The position numbers and the translations under genes are program-made. Under the pieces are notes generated by a model. The model worked only from the letters and a program-made list of their open reading frames with translations, ran no database searches and was not told the DNA's origin. A stretch of 64,000 nt of DNA from Escherichia coli (GTDB taxonomy: Bacteria; Pseudomonadota; Gammaproteobacteria; Enterobacterales; Enterobacteriaceae): assembly GCF_022846255.1 (NCBI RefSeq), contig NZ_AP025682.1; one strand, given 5' to 3'. Positions 1 through 8,513 of this stretch are shown here, piece after piece. Position 1 is the stretch's first letter. Every line of letters begins with the position of its first letter.

Positions 1-1938
1 GATTATGGCATCTGCGTGCGTACAGGCCATGGCTGGCTGGCGCTGGACTGTGATAGCGAAGATGAAGACATTCAGGCAGATATTCGTAAAACGCTTGTGC
101 AACTTCTGGGTGAGTTGCCGCCGCGACGCTGGCGAGCAAACAGTAATAAGTGTCTGTATCTGCTGGCCGTTGATGGTGATTTCCGTAAGCGTATCCATCG
201 CCTGGCGGGGGATATGGGCATTATCGAGTTGCTGGCGAACGGGCAGCAGTTCGTTGCCTGCGGTACGCACAGCAGCGGCGCGCGTATTGAATGGGACGGC
301 GGTTTGCCGGATGAACCTCCGGCTATTACTGGTGAGCAGCTTGAAACGCTGTGGCAGCGCCTGGCTGAACAACTCCCTGTGTCGGTAACCACCGAAGCGG
401 GCAACACGAAGATGCGCGACCGATCAGCATTCACGCCCGGCGCGACGGATGATACAGCTGAATATCTTGATGCCAATGGCTGGACGCTGCTGGATGGCGC
501 AAATGGTGAACGATATATCCGCTGTCCGTTTGAAGACGGCCACAGTAGCGGGGGCGATCCAACAAGCACAGTTTATTTTCCTGCGGGAACCGCGGGCTTT
601 GAGCAGGGGCATTTTAAATGCCTGCATGCCAGTTGTGCGCATCGTGATGACGGAGATTTCCTTAATGCCATCGGGATCCGCAACGACGATTTCGAAGATC
701 TGACCAGCACCGAAGTGGCGGAACCTTTACCGCTGCCTGCTTTCGAGCGTGATAAATGGGGGCGTATCGAGGCAACCATCAGCAACGCAGCAAAAGCAGT
801 AGTACGCCCTGATTTTGTGGACATCGATATTCGCTTTGACCAGTTCCGCGACGAAATCATGTTTGCCCCTGCAGGATCCGGACAATGGCGGGCATTCACC
901 GATGCGGATTATGCGCGCCTGCGCATCACGATGGAAAAGCGGGGATTTAAACCTGTTGGTCGTGAACTTATTCGCGATGTGGTGTTACTTGCAGCCGATG
1001 AACAACCATTCGATTCAGCGATCACCTGGCTGAACGGACTGGAGTGGGATGGCGTGCCGCGCATCGAATGTTTCTACCATACGCACTTCGGTACAGCCGA
1101 CACGCCTTATACCCGTGCGGTGTCTATGTACATGTGGACCGCGTTGGCGGGGCGAGTACTGGAGCCAGGCATCAAAGCGGATATGGTGCCGATCCTCGTT
1201 GGTCCGCAGGGCTGCGGTAAGTCTTCCGGAGTAGAGGCACTGAGCCCTGATCCTGCGTTTTTTACTGAAATCTCTTTTGCCGAAAAAGACGATGATCTCG
1301 CTCGAAAAATGCGTGGTCGGCTGGTGGCAGAGATTGGTGAACTGCGCGGACTTAATACCAAAGAGCTGGAGTCAATCAAAGCGTTTGTGACGCGTACTCA
1401 CGAAAACTGGATCCCGAAATACCGGGAGTTCGCCACCCAGTTTCCTCGTCGCCTGGTGTTCGTTGGTACCACCAATGAGGACGAATTCCTTGCGGACAAG
1501 ACTGGTAACCGTCGCTGGCTCCCCGTGGAAGTGTCGAAAGTCGACGTGAAAGCGATAAAAAGAGATCTCCTTTTACTTTGGGCTGAGGCTCGTGAGGTGT
1601 TTCAGCGTCTGGGGGGTATCCAGTTCCGTGAGGCTGAACAACTGGCAGCGAGTGTCCATGAACAGTACACCATCAAGGATGCTTGGCTTGAAACGGTAGA
1701 GAAATGGCTCGACACGCCAGACCTGATGACTAATGAACTTCCGCGAAATTGCGAATTTTTACGCGCAAGTGATGTTTTGCGTGATGCGATTGGGCTAAAT
1801 CCTGACCGCATCGGAAAACGCGAAGAAATGCGAATTAGTAATGTTTTGCAAAATTGCGGGTATAAGCGTGCCCAAAGGCGAATTGGGGGGAAAAAATGCA
1901 AGGTTTGGGAACCGCTGGAACCACGCGGAACCACCTAA
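1..1938 (+). CDS. Phage DNA primase / replication protein, P-loop NTPase (VirE / P4-primase C-terminal-like); 5'-partial
   Basis: Reading frame is open from nt 1 (no stop before the GTG at 16), so the gene starts upstream of the window. Walker A-like GPQGCGKSS, Walker B-like LVFVGTTNE, N-terminal CxxC/HxxC cluster. Confidence 0.6.
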   Translation, partial: DYGICVRTGHGWLALDCDSEDEDIQADIRKTLVQLLGELPPRRWRANSNKCLYLLAVDGDFRKRIHRLAGDMGIIELLANGQQFVACGTHSSGARIEWDGGLPDEPPAITGEQLETLWQRLAEQLPVSVTTEAGNTKMRDRSAFTPGATDDTAEYLDANGWTLLDGANGERYIRCPFEDGHSSGGDPTSTVYFPAGTAGFEQGHFKCLHASCAHRDDGDFLNAIGIRNDDFEDLTSTEVAEPLPLPAFERDKWGRIEATISNAAKAVVRPDFVDIDIRFDQFRDEIMFAPAGSGQWRAFTDADYARLRITMEKRGFKPVGRELIRDVVLLAADEQPFDSAITWLNGLEWDGVPRIECFYHTHFGTADTPYTRAVSMYMWTALAGRVLEPGIKADMVPILVGPQGCGKSSGVEALSPDPAFFTEISFAEKDDDLARKMRGRLVAEIGELRGLNTKELESIKAFVTRTHENWIPKYREFATQFPRRLVFVGTTNEDEFLADKTGNRRWLPVEVSKVDVKAIKRDLLLLWAEAREVFQRLGGIQFREAEQLAASVHEQYTIKDAWLETVEKWLDTPDLMTNELPRNCEFLRASDVLRDAIGLNPDRIGKREEMRISNVLQNCGYKRAQRRIGGKKCKVWEPLEPRGTT

Positions 1939-2090
1939 AAGAGAAGGTGGTTCCACCTTGCAGACCTTGTGGCAAGCGGGGCGGAACCACTGGAACCACC
2001 TTTCTACTAGAAACCCCATATATATATATAAGTCGATTGAGGGAAAGGTTAGGAAAAGGTGGTTCCAGGTGGGGGCAGGTGGTTCCACTC
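1905..2090. repeat. Iteron array flanking an AT-rich tract; putative phage origin of replication
   Basis: At least 8 copies of GGAACCAC(C) in both orientations (direct about 1908, 1917, 1927, 1983, 1992; inverted GGTGGTTCC about 1946, 2058, 2078) around (TA)n at 2018-2030. Overlaps the 3' end of the primase gene. Confidence 0.5.
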
Positions 2091-2217
2091 CGCATTAGCA
2101 ACTTTTTGCATGTTGATACATGCAATATGCGAATCGGAACTGCGTTATCCACACCCACGGATAAACAGACGTGGTTCTCAGAAAATTTTTTCGTAGCAAA
2201 ACGTAGAGGTCAGAGCT

Positions 2218-2640
2218 ATGCGTAATATTCAACAGGTTTTAGAGCGCTGGGGTGGCTGGGCAGCGAGTGAAGGTGGTAGCGTCTACTTTCCTCCTGTTGC
2301 AGCCGGGTTTAAGAATCTGCTACCCGCGACGCAGTCTGGAAGGCTGAAATGCAGTGACAATGACGGTCTTATCATCAACTCCGCTATGAGCTGCCTGAAG
2401 AAAAAAGATCCGTATCTGTGCACGCTCCTTGAGTGGCATTACGTCCAGGCCATGCCCGTGCGGGCGATGGGTGAGAAGCTCGGCGTATCTCACACCCACG
2501 TTCTGAAGAGGCTTCAGGCGGCAGAGGGATTTATTGACGGTTGCTTAGCCATGCTGGATGTGGTGCTCGAAATGGATCAGTCGGTTCAGTCAAAGCCTCA
2601 GGCGATCAGGACTTTGCGTAGGAGCTGCTCGGCGGCATAA
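2218..2640 (+). CDS. Late-gene antitermination protein Q (QuuD-like small Q family)
   Basis: 140 aa; N-terminus MRNIQQVLERWGGWAA and C-terminal LKRLQAAEGFIDGCLAMLDVVLEMD resemble my recollection of E. coli prophage QuuD-type Q; sits immediately upstream of the lysis cassette; SD present. Confidence 0.7.
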   Translation: MRNIQQVLERWGGWAASEGGSVYFPPVAAGFKNLLPATQSGRLKCSDNDGLIINSAMSCLKKKDPYLCTLLEWHYVQAMPVRAMGEKLGVSHTHVLKRLQAAEGFIDGCLAMLDVVLEMDQSVQSKPQAIRTLRRSCSAA

Positions 2641-2671
2641 TATCCAGCAATCAATCACGTAAGGGAACCAG

Positions 2672-3013
2672 ATGGCTCTGATCAGCGTTCGCAACAGATT
2701 TGAAAGCTTCATGGAACAGAGGTACCCAGACCTGTCGTTGCAGGTCAAAGGTAATATTAGCGCATCAATGAAGGCTCAACTTGGCATCAGGATTGAACGA
2801 GAATTGTACAGTGAAGATGTTACTTACTGTGATTCAGCAGTTCAGTTGATGTGGACACTCTTTCAGGCAGGTGTTCTGGCCGAACGAAGAGCTACCAGCG
2901 TTACGCTTCCTGCGCTGAAGGCAAAGCCGGATAGCTTATACGATGCGGGTTATAACGAAGGTATTCAGGACTGTCGTAAACATCTGACGGCATCAGGCAT
3001 CAAGGTAAGATAA
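2672..3013 (+). CDS. Hypothetical protein, 113 aa, between Q and the lysis genes
   Basis: ORF starts 31 nt after Q stop and is followed by a hairpin terminator; no recognisable motif. Confidence 0.4.
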   Translation: MALISVRNRFESFMEQRYPDLSLQVKGNISASMKAQLGIRIERELYSEDVTYCDSAVQLMWTLFQAGVLAERRATSVTLPALKAKPDSLYDAGYNEGIQDCRKHLTASGIKVR

Positions 3014-3080
3014 AAAATAGTTGTGGAATTCCAAAAAGCCGATTAGCCTGATATCCGTTGAAAACAGTTCATCACGAAGA

Positions 3081-3104
3081 GGCTTCCGCAAGGGGGCCTT
3101 TTTT
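3081..3104 (+). terminator. Rho-independent terminator (GGCUUCC-GCAA-GGGGGCC + U6)
   Basis: 7-bp stem including G-U pairs, GCAA tetraloop, T-run 3099-3104, downstream of the 113-aa ORF. Confidence 0.4.
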
Positions 3105-3109
3105 ATTGC

Positions 3110-3334
3110 CCCATTCTGGGGAAAAGTTAATAAAACAGGGCTTTCGCTGCGAAAAAACGCTATGCAGTTTTTGCCCTTTTTTATGCACCTTTTATTCACT
3201 CGAATTTCGTCATTCTGGACCACTTAAGTTGATTAAATAGGCCTTTCATCGCAAATCTATTGCGAGCGGGGATCGTGTGGTTCCTATAACGTACATTATG
3301 TTAAATCACCTTCTTTTTTAACAAATTTAACAAG
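3110..3334 (+). promoter_or_regulatory. Putative Q-dependent late promoter / qut region (inferred by position only)
   Basis: Non-coding, AT-rich stretch between the Q-operon terminator and a strong terminator just upstream of the holin, analogous to lambda pR'-tR'. No confident -35/-10 assignment. Confidence 0.3.
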
Positions 3335-3357
3335 GTTCGCTATGGCGAACTTTTTTT
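3335..3357 (+). terminator. Rho-independent terminator, candidate tR'-like terminator upstream of lysis genes
   Basis: Perfect hairpin GTTCGC-TATG-GCGAAC (3335-3350) followed by T7 (3351-3357). Confidence 0.55.
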
Positions 3358-3458
3358 GTATTCAGGGCCCACCGAAGGACGGCTCATAACCCAATCCTAC
3401 GGGCGTATACGCAGGGCCCGCCTTTCAACAACACCCCGTAATGGCGGAGGTGGGAAGT

Positions 3459-3800
3459 ATGAAAATGCACAATGCTCCTCATTCCTGGCCTGACTTACTG
3501 GAACTCTTACAAAGTTGGTGGCGTGGAGATACGCCGTTGGGCGCAGTGGTTATGTCAATTGTTATGGCTGGTTTGCGCATTGCCTATTTTGGCGGTGGCG
3601 GCGGCTGGAAACGAAAAACGCTTGAGATTTTGCTCTGTGGTGCTCTGACGCTGACCTTTGCATCCGCTCTTGAGTATGTTGGATGGCCTAAATCGCTTTC
3701 TGTTGCCATTGGTGGCGGCGTTGGGCTGATCGGTGTCGATGCTATTCGTGGGGCTGCAATGCGAGTAATCGGTAACAAATTTGGTAGCTCGAAGGAGTAA
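3459..3800 (+). CDS. Holin (lambda S-like) with M-K-M dual-start motif
   Basis: Hydrophobic segments and charged C-terminus; start MKMHN at 3459/3465 preceded by GGAGGTGG; the ORF track's start at 3441 is also possible. Directly upstream of endolysin. Confidence 0.7.
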   Translation: MKMHNAPHSWPDLLELLQSWWRGDTPLGAVVMSIVMAGLRIAYFGGGGGWKRKTLEILLCGALTLTFASALEYVGWPKSLSVAIGGGVGLIGVDAIRGAAMRVIGNKFGSSKE

Positions 3801-3803
3801 TTT

Positions 3804-4280
3804 ATGCAGGAACTAAATCCCCAGCGTAAAGCTTTCCTGGATATGTTGGCCTGGTCAGAAGGAACGGATAACGGGCGACAACCGACACGTAATCACGGTT
3901 ATGACGTTATCGTCGGAGGTGAGTTGTTCACTGATTACTCCGATCACCCTCGCAAACTTGTCACGCTAAACCCGAAGCTTAAATCAACAGCTGCAGGCCG
4001 GTATCAACTTCTTTCACGCTGGTGGGATGCCTACCGCAAGCAGCTTGGCCTGAAAGATTTTTCGCCAGAAAGTCAGGACGCTGTGGCGCTGCAGCAGATT
4101 AAAGAGCGTGGCGCTTTACCGATGATTGACCGTGGCGATATTCGTCAGGCAATCGACCGTTGCAGCAATATCTGGGCGTCGTTACCTGGTGCAGGTTACG
4201 GTCAGTATGAACATAAAATCGGTGACCTGATTTCCAGGTTTAAAGATGCTGGTGGGGTGGTAAATGAAGCTGACTTATAA
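3804..4280 (+). CDS. Endolysin, lambda R-like lytic transglycosylase
   Basis: 158 aa; near-identical over most of its length to lambda R as I recall it (NPQRKAFLDMLAWSEGTDNGRQPTRNHGYDVIVGGELFTDYSDHPRKLVTLNPKLKST). Confidence 0.9.
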   Translation: MQELNPQRKAFLDMLAWSEGTDNGRQPTRNHGYDVIVGGELFTDYSDHPRKLVTLNPKLKSTAAGRYQLLSRWWDAYRKQLGLKDFSPESQDAVALQQIKERGALPMIDRGDIRQAIDRCSNIWASLPGAGYGQYEHKIGDLISRFKDAGGVVNEADL

Positions 4281-4788
4281 GATTGTCATCGCGGCATTTT
4301 TCTTCTCTGTCTTTGGGGCGCTCGTCTGGTCTGCAAACCATTACCACAGCAAGTATCAGGCAGAAAAGTTGCGGGCTGATAAAGCGGAAGGTGAAGCTGA
4401 ATATCAAGGGAAAGTGATAGCTAATCAGGCATTAAACTTCAATCGTTTTAACCAGATAGCAGAAAACGCAAGCCGATTAAATTCTCTGGTCGACATCGGT
4501 CACGAGAAGACAGTCATCAAATACCGTGAGGTTCTGCTCCGTGAAAAGAACTGTGATTTCCCTGTTCCTGTTGATATTGCTGTCGGGTTGCTCAACTACG
4601 CGAACCGTTTACGTGCCAGCGCATTGCACGCCGATTCCGGGGACATTGACTCAGCCGGTGATCGTGCCACTACCACCAGAACGTTGACATATTGCCAGGC
4701 TGTTCTGTGGATTAACCCACTGTTGGCAGCCATCGAGAAGGCGAATAACCAGTTGGCTGGTGTCCGACAAATAGAACAGTCCCGGTAA
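4264..4788 (+). CDS. i-spanin (Rz-like)
   Basis: N-terminal signal-anchor helix then a long charged helical region; overlaps endolysin stop; contains an embedded +1-frame lipoprotein ORF. Confidence 0.65.
   Translation: MKLTYKIVIAAFFFSVFGALVWSANHYHSKYQAEKLRADKAEGEAEYQGKVIANQALNFNRFNQIAENASRLNSLVDIGHEKTVIKYREVLLREKNCDFPVPVDIAVGLLNYANRLRASALHADSGDIDSAGDRATTTRTLTYCQAVLWINPLLAAIEKANNQLAGVRQIEQSR
4541..4687 (+). CDS. o-spanin (Rz1-like outer-membrane lipoprotein) embedded in the Rz frame
   Basis: Translation from GTG at 4541: VKRTVISLFLLILLSGCSTTRTVYVPAHCTPIPGTLTQPVIVPLPPER; lipobox LLSGC, Pro-rich C-terminus; not in the supplied ORF track (under 60 aa). An in-frame GTG at 4526 is an alternative start. 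Confidence 0.6.
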   Translation: MKRTVISLFLLILLSGCSTTRTVYVPAHCTPIPGTLTQPVIVPLPPER

Positions 4789-4849
4789 TAGCATTACAGA
4801 AGCTCTTCCAGGAGGGGCTTCGATAATGACCTGATAACTGGAAAATAAA

Positions 4850-5422
4850 ATGACTAAGAAGCTGAAAGCAAAACACGAGGTGTTTTGTCGCGAGTTTCTT
4901 GTCGATCTGAATGCTACACAAGCAGCTATTCGCGCAGGCTACGTCTCCAGGCGAGCACATGTTACGGGGGCTGAACTATACGGTAAACCTGAGATACGCG
5001 CCCGTATTAACGAGCTAAAGCAGGAGCGTATTGATCAACTGGGCATTGATGCGAATTATGTGCTGATACGACTGGTTGAGATCGACAGGCTCGATGTGGC
5101 TGACATCCTGGAGGACGATTTAAGTATTAAGCCTCTGTCTGCGTGGCCGGAATCGTGGCGTCGGTACCTGAGTGGATTTAACCTCGCTGAAATGTTTGAG
5201 GGGCGAGGAGATGACAGAGAAATGGTCGGGATCCTTAAAAAGATTAAGTGGCCTGATAAGGTTAAAAACCTTGAGTTGCTTGGGCGTCATGTTTCTGTTC
5301 AGGCGTTTAAAGACAACGTCAAAAATGAAGTGACTGGCGCTGATGGAGGACCCGTCAGAACAGAAATTACCAACTTAACGCCGGAGCAGGCTGCAGAGGC
5401 GTATAGAAAAATGATGGGCTAA
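4850..5422 (+). CDS. Terminase small subunit
   Basis: 190 aa; N-terminal [16 protein letters not shown] motif typical of phage small terminase; directly upstream of large terminase. Confidence 0.8.
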
Positions 5423-5424
5423 GT

Positions 5425-7047
5425 ATGCCGTTACCATTCCCCTTCGATTTTAAACATCCTGATTACCAGATGGTTTTTGAATGGCGGATGGAACGCCTGC
5501 AGCGCATTCGCCAGAATCCTGAAATATTGCCTGCACTAAAACAGTTTTACCGAACTAATCCGGCTCAGTTCATCATCGACTGGGGCATGACAACGGACCC
5601 GCGTAATATTGATTATGGCCTGCCGGTGACCATTCCGTTTTTACTCTTCCCTAAGCAGGAGGAGTGGATCCACTGGATTATGGAACGCTGGGGCAATCGG
5701 GAGAATGGTATTACCGAAAAATCCCGTGAAATGGGGCTCAGTTGGACCGCGATCGGACTGGCATGTTCGCTTTGTCTCTTCAACAAAGAAATGGTTATCG
5801 GTTTCGGCTCCCGTAAAGAGGAATACGTCGACAGCACCGGTGACCCGAAAGCATTGTTCTGGAAGGCGCGCAAGTTCGTGGAAACACTGCCTGTAGAGTT
5901 TCGCGGTTCGTGGAGCGAGAAGAAGCACGCGCCATATATGCGTGTTGAGTTTCCTGAAACTGGTGCCGTTATCAAAGGCGAGGCTGGCGATAATATTGGT
6001 CGTGGTGACCGTACCACGCTTTATCTGGTTGATGAGGCTGCATTCCTTCAGCGTCCTCTGCTGATTGATGCGGCGTTGTCACAAACGACGCGTTGCCGTA
6101 TCGACCTGAGTTCAGTTAACGGCATGGCGAACCCGTTCGCTCAGAAGCGTCATGGCGGGAAGATACCAGTATTCACATTCCACTGGCGGGATGATCCTCG
6201 CAAGGATGAAGAGTGGTATCGCAGGGAATGCGAGAAAATCGATAATCCGGTGGTGGTGGCACAGGAACTTGATCTGAACTACAGCGCATCAGCGGAAGGC
6301 GTCCTGATTCCATCCGAATGGGTACAGGCTGCCGTTGATGCGCATATCAAACTGGGTATCCAGCCAACAGGCAAACGACTTGGCGCGATGGATGTCGCCG
6401 ACGAAGGCAGGGACAAAAATGCCTTTTCCACCCGTCATGGCTTCCTCCTGGAAAATGTGCGGGAATGGTCCGGTGTGGGCAGCGACATTTATCAGTCCGT
6501 CGAGAAGGTTTTCGGCTTTTGCGAACAGGATAACCTCGAAGAGTTTCGCTTTGACGAGGACGGGCTGGGCGCTGGCGTTCGCGGCGATGCACGCGCTATC
6601 AACGAACTGCGTAACGCTGCGCGTCGACCGTCAATACTCGCCACACCGTTTCGAGGTAGTGGCGCGGTATTTGATCCGGATGATGAAGCTGTTCGCGGGG
6701 ACAACGGGCAAGCCGCACGTCTGAACAAGGACTTCTTCGCTAACGCCAAAGCCCAAAGCTGGTGGCGGTTACGTAAACTTTTTCAGAATACCTGGCGCGC
6801 CGTGGTTGAAGGTATGGCTTACAACCCGGACGAAATCATCTCAATCAGCAGTAGCATGGCACTCAAAGATAAACTCATCATCGAGCTTTCGCAGCCGACC
6901 TATTCCATTAATGGTGTGGGAAAAATCGTTATTGATAAACAGCCTGATGGGACCCGGTCGCCAAATCTTGCCGACTCGGTGATGATCAACTATGCCCCAA
7001 TGAATTCAGCCCTGAACATCTGGGAGTTGCTAGGGAGACAGGCCTGA
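5425..7047 (+). CDS. Terminase large subunit
   Basis: 540 aa; Walker B-like LYLVDEAAF; position between small terminase and portal. Confidence 0.75.
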
Positions 7048-8513
7048 TGGCACGAAACAAACAAGCCCTGCGGCGAACTGCGCAGGCCACAGCTGATGGT
7101 TATGAGAATTTTATCGCCCGCGTAGGGATGCAGACACCTAACCAGCACTCAGCATCCACCTACCGGGCTAATTTCACCAGTCGTAACCGCATGCTGGTGG
7201 AATGGTCCTATCGTTCTTCCTGGATCATCGGCGAAGCAGTCGATGCTATCCCGGATGATATGACCCGCAAAGGCATTCGCATCACTTCGGAAATTGATGC
7301 AAAAGATCGTGGCATTCTCGAATCACAACTGGATGAGTTGCAAATCTGGGATGCGCTGAATGACGTGCTGAAATGGTCGCGCCTCTACGGCGGCGCGGTG
7401 GGTTTCATCATGATTGAGGGGCAGGCACCAATGACCCCGCTGCGACCCGAAACCATCGGTAAGGGCAAGTTTAAGGGGATTCTCCCGCTCGACCGCTGGA
7501 TGATTGACCCGGTACTGACCCGCCGCATTAAAGATATGGGGCCGGACCTGGGTAAACCTGAGTTTTATGATGTGGTGACCACAGCAACGGGAATTCCTGC
7601 CTGGCGCATTCATCACAGTCGCCTGATTCGCTTTGATGGCGTCACGCTGCCATTTCAGCAGAAGATGACCGAGAACGAATGGGGAATGTCGGTTGTAGAG
7701 CGTATCTGGGATCGTCTTACCGCGTTCGACAGCGCTACTGTCGGTGCGGCGCAGCTGGTCTACAAGGCGCATTTGCGTACCTACAGCGTGGAGAAGCTAC
7801 GCGAGCTTATCGCACTTGGTGGTCCTGCGTATGAAGCGTTGCTGAAGAATATTGACCTGATTCGACAGTTCCAGAGCAATGAAGGCATGACTCTCATGGA
7901 CTCGCGGGATAAGTTTGAAACCCATCAGTACAGCTTCAGTGGTCTGGATGACATCCTTTCACAGTTTGCAGAACAGATTAGTGGCGCTGTTGGTATCCCA
8001 CTGGTGCGGTTGTTCGGACAGTCCCCGAAGGGATTTTCTACCGGCGATGCAGACCTTGCCAACTATTACGACCGGGTAAGTTCGTTGCAGGAGAGGCGTT
8101 TACGTCTTCCGGTGCGGCGGATACTGGACATCATGCATCGTTCGGAACTTGGCAAGCCGCTCCCGGATGATTTTACATTTGAGTTTAACCCGCTCTGGCA
8201 AATGTCTGATGTCGATCGTTCAACGGTGGCATTAAATACCACCAACGCAATCAGTACAGCGCTGGGTGATGGTCTGATGACACTGAAAGCTGCTATGACT
8301 GATTTGCGCGAAAATTCTGACGTAACCGGCATCGGGGCATCCATTACCGACGAGGACATCGAGAATGCCGAAGACGAAGCGCCGCCCGGCATCGGCGAAC
8401 CTGATGACGAACCGCAGGAACCGTCAGGCGGAAATCCGCTATCGAACCAGCCTACGCAGGATAGCGCGGGCGGTCGGGGACATCGTAAATGGTCGCTACG
8501 ATGGTTCAAATGA
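7047..8513 (+). CDS. Portal protein (putative)
   Basis: 488 aa; follows large terminase with ATGA overlap; acidic C-terminus. Confidence 0.65.
   Translation: MARNKQALRRTAQATADGYENFIARVGMQTPNQHSASTYRANFTSRNRMLVEWSYRSSWIIGEAVDAIPDDMTRKGIRITSEIDAKDRGILESQLDELQIWDALNDVLKWSRLYGGAVGFIMIEGQAPMTPLRPETIGKGKFKGILPLDRWMIDPVLTRRIKDMGPDLGKPEFYDVVTTATGIPAWRIHHSRLIRFDGVTLPFQQKMTENEWGMSVVERIWDRLTAFDSATVGAAQLVYKAHLRTYSVEKLRELIALGGPAYEALLKNIDLIRQFQSNEGMTLMDSRDKFETHQYSFSGLDDILSQFAEQISGAVGIPLVRLFGQSPKGFSTGDADLANYYDRVSSLQERRLRLPVRRILDIMHRSELGKPLPDDFTFEFNPLWQMSDVDRSTVALNTTNAISTALGDGLMTLKAAMTDLRENSDVTGIGASITDEDIENAEDEAPPGIGEPDDEPQEPSGGNPLSNQPTQDSAGGRGHRKWSLRWFK

Follow-up and report, generated by a model that had tools for sequence, protein, structure and literature searches.

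A predicted plasmid-type Xer recombination site, related to psi and cer, between the Q and holin genes of an Escherichia coli prophage

The non-coding interval at 3014-3458 of a 64,000-nucleotide (nt) stretch of Escherichia coli DNA (contig NZ_AP025682.1 of assembly GCF_022846255.1; the whole stretch is called the window here) lies between an open reading frame (ORF) of 113 codons, ORF113, and a holin gene of a prophage. A first-pass annotation had described this interval as a candidate late promoter and qut/tR' region and did not pick up the conserved block at 3125-3331. That block is probably a plasmid-type Xer recombination site related to psi of plasmid pSC101 and cer of ColE1. The comparisons below establish how the site is built, that it is conserved, that it is akin to psi and that insertion sequences (ISs) use it as a target; its function, by analogy with psi and cer, is most likely the resolution of phage genome multimers or tandem prophages by the host recombinases XerC and XerD (XerCD).

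The predicted Xer core and its accessory DNA

The core of the site, GGTTCCTATAA-CGTACA-TTATGTTAAAT, is 28 bp long and is the only such site in the window, which also holds no second copy of the XerD arm. Read on the plus strand, it consists of a XerC arm (3279-3289), a central or crossover region of 6 bp (3290-3295), the length found in dif and psi, and a XerD arm (3296-3306). In E. coli, dif reads GGTGCGCATAA-TGTATA-TTATGTTAAAT (PMC2731167); the XerC arm of the window agrees with that of dif at 8 of 11 bases and the XerD arm at all 11, and a full-text literature search with TTATGTTAAAT led to papers on dif and Xer. Among 117 homologues collected via a block of the accessory DNA alone (block A, described below), the XerD arm is intact and at a fixed distance in 113. 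The family consensus of the XerC arm is RGTGCGGRTAA, with A10 and A11 invariant. The crossover region has a fixed length of 6 bp and 17 sequence variants, none of which is the TGTATA of the host dif; near-identical phages are polymorphic here, with CATACA and CGCACA. Xer sites have been reported to have a XerD arm that is more conserved than the XerC arm (PMC10132070), and arm conservation in the phage family matches this pattern. To the right of the core, a conserved flank ending in CTTCTTTTTTAACAAATTT (3307-3331, plus strand) is kept across genomic contexts and includes TTGTTA on the minus strand (3324-3319).

The accessory-sequence region occupies about 154 bp on the XerC side of the core (3125-3278, plus strand), is conserved in 24 diverse representatives and has the same length as the corresponding region of psi. 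Its left-end box, AAAACAGGGCTTTCG (3132-3153, plus strand), contains the palindrome TTTCGC-T-GCGAAA, whose arms vary in concert across homologues when compared by eye. The box aligns with GAAATAGCGCTTTCAG, which has the same position in psi and in the phage sites referred to below as family 2, and the distance from box to core is 147 bp in the window versus 144 bp in psi. Three direct repeats follow within block A (3161-3199, plus strand): TATGCAG (3161), TATGCAC (3182), and TATTCAC (3193), spaced by 21 and 11 bp. These repeats are a candidate site for a second accessory protein, and their centre is 102 bp from the crossover region; the corresponding distances are 104 bp (ArcA box) in psi and 120 bp (ARG box) in cer. 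In the form TATGCAC-N4-TATTCAC, the block does not qualify as an ArcA box or as a canonical ARG box, and it matches an ARG box lengthened by one spacing base with 3 mismatches (p = 0.03). Nearer the core is a central palindrome, TCGCAA-atcta-TTGCGA (3249-3265, plus strand), with arms that vary together across homologues; psi has GCCCG-tttg-CGGGC at the equivalent place. The A/T tracts of the window's family are phased at 11.5-12 bp, with a mean z score of about 9 at 11.5 bp. For the window alone the z score at 11.5-12 bp is 3.2-4.6, and values of 4.9-6.1 for cer and of 8-11 (at 10-11 bp) for psi were obtained.

The comparison with plasmid sites used the psi sequence from pSC101 and the cer sequence from ColE1. 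By eye, only the left box and the core-proximal block of the window's own accessory family (family 1) align with psi, and what appears to link this family to psi is the core common to both, together with the layout, the left-end box, and a sister family. This sister family (family 2) occurs in other phages with the same core and a different upstream part, and it aligns block by block with psi: GAAATAGCGCTTTCA, an ArcA-type TGTTA-N6-TGTTA, a C/T-rich block, GAGTG, and the core. A profile built from family-2 accessory DNA alone, with psi and all cores excluded, matched the accessory region of psi (L240:112-250) in a 2.1-Mb database with E = 2.2e-4, and family 2 and psi agree in the order of left box, ArcA box, and core-proximal block.

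Judged from sequence and layout, the closest known system is psi, followed by cer. The window site shares with psi a 28-bp core, a 6-bp crossover region, a near-identical XerD arm (psi: TTATGTTAAAC), accessory DNA of about 150-160 bp on the XerC side with a palindrome in mid-region, the left-end box (G)AAA(T/C)AG(C/G)GCTTTC(A/G), a core-proximal GCGAG(T/C)GG block, and, roughly 100 bp from the crossover region, a putative site for an accessory protein. It differs in that psi is carried by a plasmid while the window site is in an integrating tailed prophage, inside the late transcription unit, and in that TATGCAC/TATTCAC repeats replace the ArcA box in the window's family. With cer it shares the combination of core and accessory DNA (about 180 bp), A/T tracts phased at 11.5-12 bp, an ARG-box-like TGCA(C/T)...ATTCA, and possibly an internal promoter such as Pcer; however, the crossover region is 8 bp long in cer and 6 bp in the window, the XerD arm is TTATGGTAAAT in cer and that of dif in the window, and the ARG box of cer has 4-bp spacing and is centred 120 bp from the crossover region, compared with 5-bp spacing at 102 bp in the window. 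The chromosomal dif site is similar in its identical XerD arm, its XerC arm (8 of 11), its 6-bp spacer, and in being a target of ISKpn21-family ISs, but it has no accessory sequences, depends on FtsK, lies at the replication terminus, and has the crossover region TGTATA.

Distribution of the cassette and insertion next to the XerC arm

The site is part of a conserved cassette of about 230 bp that runs from a terminator, t1 (described below), through 3331, with the Xer core toward its end. In BLAST searches the interval was 95-99% identical in 135 E. coli genomes, many of the matches beginning inside t1, and the cassette is present in 145 of 5,426 complete E. coli genomes as well as in phages of Klebsiella, Yersinia, and Enterobacter. 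Weaker matches brought out conservation in two blocks, block A at about 3132-3202 and block B at about 3279-3325; a pattern made from block A only recovered more than 120 contigs from IMG/VR. Both blocks are found in an E. coli prophage directly behind a different Q, between the TerS and TerL genes of an E. coli DX6 prophage, and in Yersinia phage YP3.

The genes around the cassette vary, while its orientation does not. A Q gene lies upstream in 43 of 125 loci, and these Q proteins fall into three classes by identity to the window Q (at least 85%, 40-50%, and less than 40%); the cassette also stands behind Q proteins merely 33-47% identical to it. In 58 of the 125 loci TerL begins right after the cassette, which is the position between TerS and TerL; in Klebsiella phage Mulock the cassette lies between TerL and the portal gene, and in the DX6 prophage a different antitermination protein is encoded 6 kb upstream of it. 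All 331 of 331 flanking-gene matches are on the strand of the cassette, in the orientation of the late genes. A cassette that neither changes with Q nor stays beside Q behaves contrary to what is expected of a promoter or binding element specific to Q. Window positions 3106-3128 (CTGGGGAAAAGTTAATAAAAC) resemble the last codons and stop of TerS (ATGGGGTAAAACTGCAAAAAT) in three contigs (L003, L009, and L016), which hints that the cassette may have moved from the TerS-TerL position.

A search of viral contigs with block B only found the motif outside the cassette as well: beside iteron-like repeats in rV5-like virulent phages, beside DnaA boxes, and as second copies in phage late regions. In the rV5-like phages (about 145 kb) a near-perfect dif, GGTGCGTATAA-CGTGTA-TTATGTTAAAT, lies in a non-coding region rich in iteron-like repeats, for example at 5471-5490 of L134 (Salmonella phage PVP-SE1, near 117,400) and also in L131, L149, L150, L162, and L164. 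One GC-rich viral contig (L239, about 2860-3000) has four DnaA boxes TGTGGATAA about 100 nt upstream of AGTGCGTATAA-CACCCA-TTATGTTAAAT. In some phages the portal region is flanked by two directly repeated psi-like sites at a distance of 2.3-3.9 kb (L142 at 5594 and 7886, L010 at 1636 and 5531, L183 at 2410 and 4707). Such paired sites differ in accessory family and crossover region; L142, for example, has CAGTTA and GAACCA.

Two further observations concern phages with the site ahead of TerL. About 137 nt after block A, contig L050 departs from the family inside the XerD arm (GCACCA, then TTAT/AATGG) and has 2 kb of extra DNA ahead of TerL; a rearrangement related to Xer may account for this divergence. 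Where the site lies between TerS and TerL (42 IMG/VR loci), the phages have an extra tyrosine recombinase (PF00589, 240-334 amino acids; for example, L003 925-1647 and L128 462-1466), encoded 0.9-1.6 kb upstream of the site and just before a helix-turn-helix TerS-like gene. This recombinase, which has no homologue in the window, could be a partner dedicated to the site.

Insertion sequences target the site in a similar way to dif. Four IMG/VR copies are interrupted exactly at the expected start of the XerC arm by DNA that begins TGTC, and the insert in one of these encodes an ISNCY-family transposase (E = 9e-91). Five related phage copies have an ISKpn21-family IS adjoining the XerC arm; the ISKpn21 family belongs to the ISNCY/IS1202 group, whose ISAjo2-type members have been described as "dif site hunters". 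Both junctions can be read in Enterobacter plasmid pE76_003, where GATCGCGT is directly followed by the IS and the other IS end, ACA, is followed by CGCGT and by GGTGCAGATAA-CGGTAA-TTATGTTAAAT, after which come the usual right flank and the holin; the 5-bp duplication CGCGT is present on both sides of the IS. The same IS is found at a dif-type site of an E. coli chromosome, where ACA is followed by ATGTT and GGTACGCATAATGTATATTATGTTAAAT, with ATGTT at the other end too. Insertion beside the XerC arm indicates that dif-targeting elements treat the phage site as dif-like. A scan of viral contigs for the right end of the IS beside a core gave chance matches only, and the junction came from pE76_003. 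This plasmid (CP042502.1; L247-L249) is a cointegrate of such a phage with a plasmid backbone (sopA/parB and a replication gene), fused via IS26 copies in the tail-fibre region, with the Xer site split by ISKpn21.

Genetic setting, candidate late promoter and holin leader

Positions 1-8000 of the window are the switch region of a prophage of about 40 kb. A VapE-type primase gene (16-1938) is followed by a Q antiterminator gene of the Q21/Q933W family (2218-2640, plus strand; PF06530, E = 5e-42), whose product is 42-47% identical to Q of Stx phages (42-44% for the 933W type) and 89% identical to Q of phage vB_EcoM-611R5. ORF113 (2672-3013, plus strand) is an accessory gene between Q and t1 with no family match in Pfam or NCBIfam. 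In vB_EcoM-611R5 it is cleanly deleted, with a 9-codon remnant remaining (L001 5941-5970), and it has the look of a dispensable moron that a promoter at the end of Q would transcribe. The interval itself has no ORF with family support, and a minus-strand ORF of 38 amino acids is not conserved. The holin of the lambda S family (3459-3800, plus strand; PF05106, E = 1e-27) starts Met-Lys-Met, and is annotated in RefSeq as 'phage holin, lambda family'; the genes for endolysin, Rz, TerS, and TerL come next. E. coli 97-3250 has a near-identical prophage between yfhL and yfhH, with genes for an integrase of its own, a DNA polymerase of family A, a portal protein of the DUF1073 type, and a Mu-F-like head protein.

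The late promoter that the first-pass annotation had placed in the interval was not found there: a promoter scan gave no plus-strand sigma-70 match in 1800-3900, and no hexamer pair is conserved across homologues. It probably lies across the 3' end of Q instead. In 933W-type phages, differential RNA-seq puts the start of pR' 258 nt upstream of the 3' end of tR' (PMC7547250), and in Min27 the pR' start is about 20 nt past the Q stop, with the -35 in the last Q codons and the -10 just beyond the stop; a hairpin resembling a terminator spans about +22 to +50. In the window, a candidate pR' read from the sequence, TTGCGT (2614-2619), a 17-18-nt spacer, and (A)TAATAT (2637-2643), overlaps the Q stop (2614-2643, plus strand), below the threshold of the promoter scan. 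The last 60 nt of Q are 95% identical between two alleles with 87% identity over the whole coding sequences, and a search for Q-binding repeats near the 3' end of Q found just a short palindrome, GAGC-T-GCTC. By comparison with these phages, ORF113 would be read from pR', and t1 would be the first tR'-like terminator.

Two intrinsic terminators lie between the candidate promoter and the late genes, and they flank the Xer site. Both had been proposed in the first-pass annotation, at 3081-3104 and 3335-3357, and both are borne out. The first, t1 (3076-3106, plus strand), is a 12-bp hairpin, GAAGAGGCTTCC-GCAA-GGGGGCCTTTTT, in which 3076-3087 pairs with 3092-3103 around the loop GCAA, and it is followed by a T run that ends at 3104; its folding energy is -17.1 kcal/mol (z = -2.5 versus shuffles), and it is missing from the output of a simple terminator scan. 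It is kept immediately after the Q stop codon in L002-type phages and coincides with a mosaic joint, as BLAST matches in many E. coli prophages begin at about 3094. The second, t2 (3332-3360, plus strand), was found by terminator scan and by folding and consists of a hairpin at 3332-3353 and a T run (-10.4 kcal/mol, z = -4.0, 0 of 200 shuffles as stable). It is lineage-specific, being found only where a lambda-S-type holin comes next.

The holin leader contains a direct repeat, CAGGGCCC(A/G)CC, as the earlier annotation had it: CAGGGCCCACC is at 3363-3373 and CAGGGCCCGCC at 3412-3422, the latter 3 nt from the position (about 3409) given before. The GGGCCC core of the repeat is self-complementary, and in the minimum-energy fold of 3358-3475 (-40.6 kcal/mol, z = -2.0, 5 of 200 shuffles as stable), pairing between the two copies closes a domain of about 55 nt in the 5' leader of the holin (3363-3422, plus strand). 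A two-copy 11-mer repeat alone is weak evidence, and the leader is nearly invariant among 24 homologues, which leaves almost no variation for a co-variation signal. The suspected hairpin over the holin Shine-Dalgarno is likewise present in the predicted fold: 3432-3439 pairs with 3444-3452 (3432-3452, plus strand; -13.9 kcal/mol, z = -2.6) and covers GGAGGTG. This hairpin is similar to the sdi element of lambda. The lambda sdi sets the ratio of the two S start codons.

Proposed function, alternative readings and significance

In psi and cer, PepA together with ArcA (psi) or ArgR (cer) wraps the accessory DNA, and this wrapping restricts recombination to direct repeats on one supercoiled molecule (PMC5357621; bioRxiv 10.64898/2026.02.23.706985). 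If the phage site works in the same way, host XerC and XerD would bind the core, and PepA with a second accessory protein would wrap together the accessory DNA of two copies that lie in direct repeat on a single supercoiled molecule. Strand exchange across the 6-bp region, first by XerC and next by XerD, would have to wait for this wrapping and would delete the DNA between the copies. Two direct copies would arise in phage DNA as circular dimers during replication or as tandem lysogens, and resolution would return these to single genomes. Crossover regions that are unlike the host dif, and unlike each other in two-site phages, fit selection against harmful recombination. In the prophage itself, Q-modified polymerase would reach the holin only after passing t1, the Xer site, and then t2.

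Several observations weigh against a resolution site. The window XerC arm has an unusual C at position 6, shared by 8 of 29 distinct cores; the canonical ARG box and the ArcA box match block A with 4 and 2 mismatches, neither being significant (p = 0.33 and p = 0.22); and the profile of family 1 has no significant match to psi or cer. Some phages have two sites, which is beyond what resolution requires, and the near-identical prophage between yfhL and yfhH integrates by its own integrase. Phages with headful packaging need concatemers, and dimer resolution is not obviously useful to them. Confidence in the function is moderate mainly because the benefit to an integrating phage with headful packaging is not obvious.

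A resolution site could have a regulatory transcript as well. The cassette has been considered as encoding, in addition or instead, a leftward small RNA that would report the multimer state from a promoter over the XerD arm, and there is a precedent for this in the Rcd RNA made from Pcer in the cer site of ColE1, where Pcer is repressed by XerCD (PMC4393325, PMC2831885). The sole sigma-70-like match in 1800-3900 is on the minus strand and pairs the TTGTTA of the right flank, across 18 nt, with CATAAT (3300-3295); the TAACAA block is conserved and otherwise unexplained, the palindromes have co-changing arms, and a minus-strand hairpin with a U run is found at the left edge of the cassette (3128-3153). 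However, the -35 is poor in TerL-adjacent copies, the counts of G-U pairs in the central hairpin favour the plus strand (26 versus 14), the minus-strand consensus, checked on a redundant subset of 29 sequences, is uninformative, RNAalifold finds no consensus fold on the plus strand (-0.82 kcal/mol), and Rfam has no match. Such an RNA is considered rather improbable.

Other RNA-based or expression-based candidates were rejected. For a structured plus-strand RNA of the put-like, nut-like, or riboswitch type, that RNAalifold result amounts to a trivial 4-bp helix without co-variation, and single-sequence folds have no common global shape. Assignment of a strand by folding energies and G-U counts is ambiguous. 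Known RNA families and tRNAs are absent from the interval save for a weak, terminator-like ctRNA match at t1. The small ORFs MQFLPFFMH... and MLNxxxF have no ribosome-binding site, and conservation by inspection is at the nucleotide level. As a -10 element, a sigma-dependent pause, a sigma-28 -10, an RfaH ops element, or an IHF site, TTATGTTAAAT does not fit across its variants.

The reading of the interval as a Q-dependent late control region, with pR', a qut or Q-binding element, a short terminated transcript, and tR', has the expected position in its favour: the interval lies between a PF06530 Q and the lysis genes, starting with a lambda-S-type holin, it has two good intrinsic terminators, and the cassette follows Q in 43 of 125 loci. 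In these respects it is similar to the pR'-qut-tR' regions of lambda, 21, 82, and 933W, which are also downstream of Q (of the Q21/Q933W family here) with terminators ahead of the lysis genes. Unlike in those regions, no promoter, sigma-dependent pause, or Q-binding repeats were found in the interval, and the cassette is independent of Q type. The proposed qut site is not supported, as the cassette is unchanged behind Q proteins of 33-47% identity and is found far from any Q, between TerS and TerL (58 loci) or between TerL and the portal gene, in phages with another antiterminator, as in DX6. In addition, the related 933W-type system has its pR' across the end of Q, and the conserved 3' block of the cassette is a dif-like core. 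Late control by the interval is considered unlikely.

A use of XerCD other than resolution would be the exchange of modules, with the sites as docking points at which XerCD swaps late-gene modules between phages or at which satellites or integrative mobile elements exploiting Xer (IMEX) integrate. The sites are located exactly at module junctions (between Q and lysis genes, between TerS and TerL, between TerL and portal, and after portal), different downstream modules follow the same cassette, crossover regions are diverse, L050 diverges inside the XerD arm, and module swapping has been proposed for dif modules on Acinetobacter plasmids. Yet the crossover region is not where homology between relatives stops; it stops 25-30 bp right of the core and left of t1. 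In psi and cer, intermolecular recombination is prevented by the accessory sequences, and all sites within a genome are direct repeats while dif modules are inverted pairs. Exchange is considered a very unlikely role. A packaging site (pac or cos) recognized by the terminase family is hardly credible, for despite the nearby terminase genes, the fixed orientation, the phased repeats, and the bent DNA, the motifs are invariant beside TerS proteins that are about 25% identical to each other, up to two copies occur per genome, and the invariant motif is the host XerD arm, which recurs in plasmids and chromosomes.

Interpretation as a Xer resolution site also sets the window apart from the Xer sites described in phages. 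The literature on Xer use by phages concerns filamentous phages, gokushoviruses, and tail-less Vibrio prophages, and an incomplete literature search found no description of psi- or cer-type sites in the late operons of tailed phages. The attachment sites of CTX, VGJ, TLC, and gokushovirus prophages and of IMEX (PMC5357621) are DNA that uses host XerCD, as is predicted for the phage site here; however, those of CTX, VGJ, TLC, and gokushoviruses serve small non-tailed phages for integration at the host dif and have no accessory DNA of the psi type, while the window prophage integrates elsewhere with its own integrase and has a crossover region that differs from dif.

The block should not be annotated as a late promoter. 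Sites of the psi and cer type are textbook plasmid devices, and a psi homologue in the late operon of integrating tailed phages would, if this reading is correct, be a new and widespread class of natural Xer substrate with a new accessory-sequence module. It would account for a highly conserved non-coding cassette at mosaic junctions, and it would mean that dif-hunting ISs can split phage late operons. A more general proposal, offered tentatively, is that enterobacterial temperate tailed phages carry families of psi-like Xer sites at late-module junctions, from one to at least two per genome, with accessory types of the ArcA kind and of the new TATGCAC/TATTCAC kind and with crossover regions that are incompatible within a genome; XerCD and PepA might then keep the phage genome monomeric while it replicates or is integrated in tandem, perhaps with Rcd-like sensing or rare module exchange. 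If this were so, a plasmid maintenance device would be a standard part of phage late operons.

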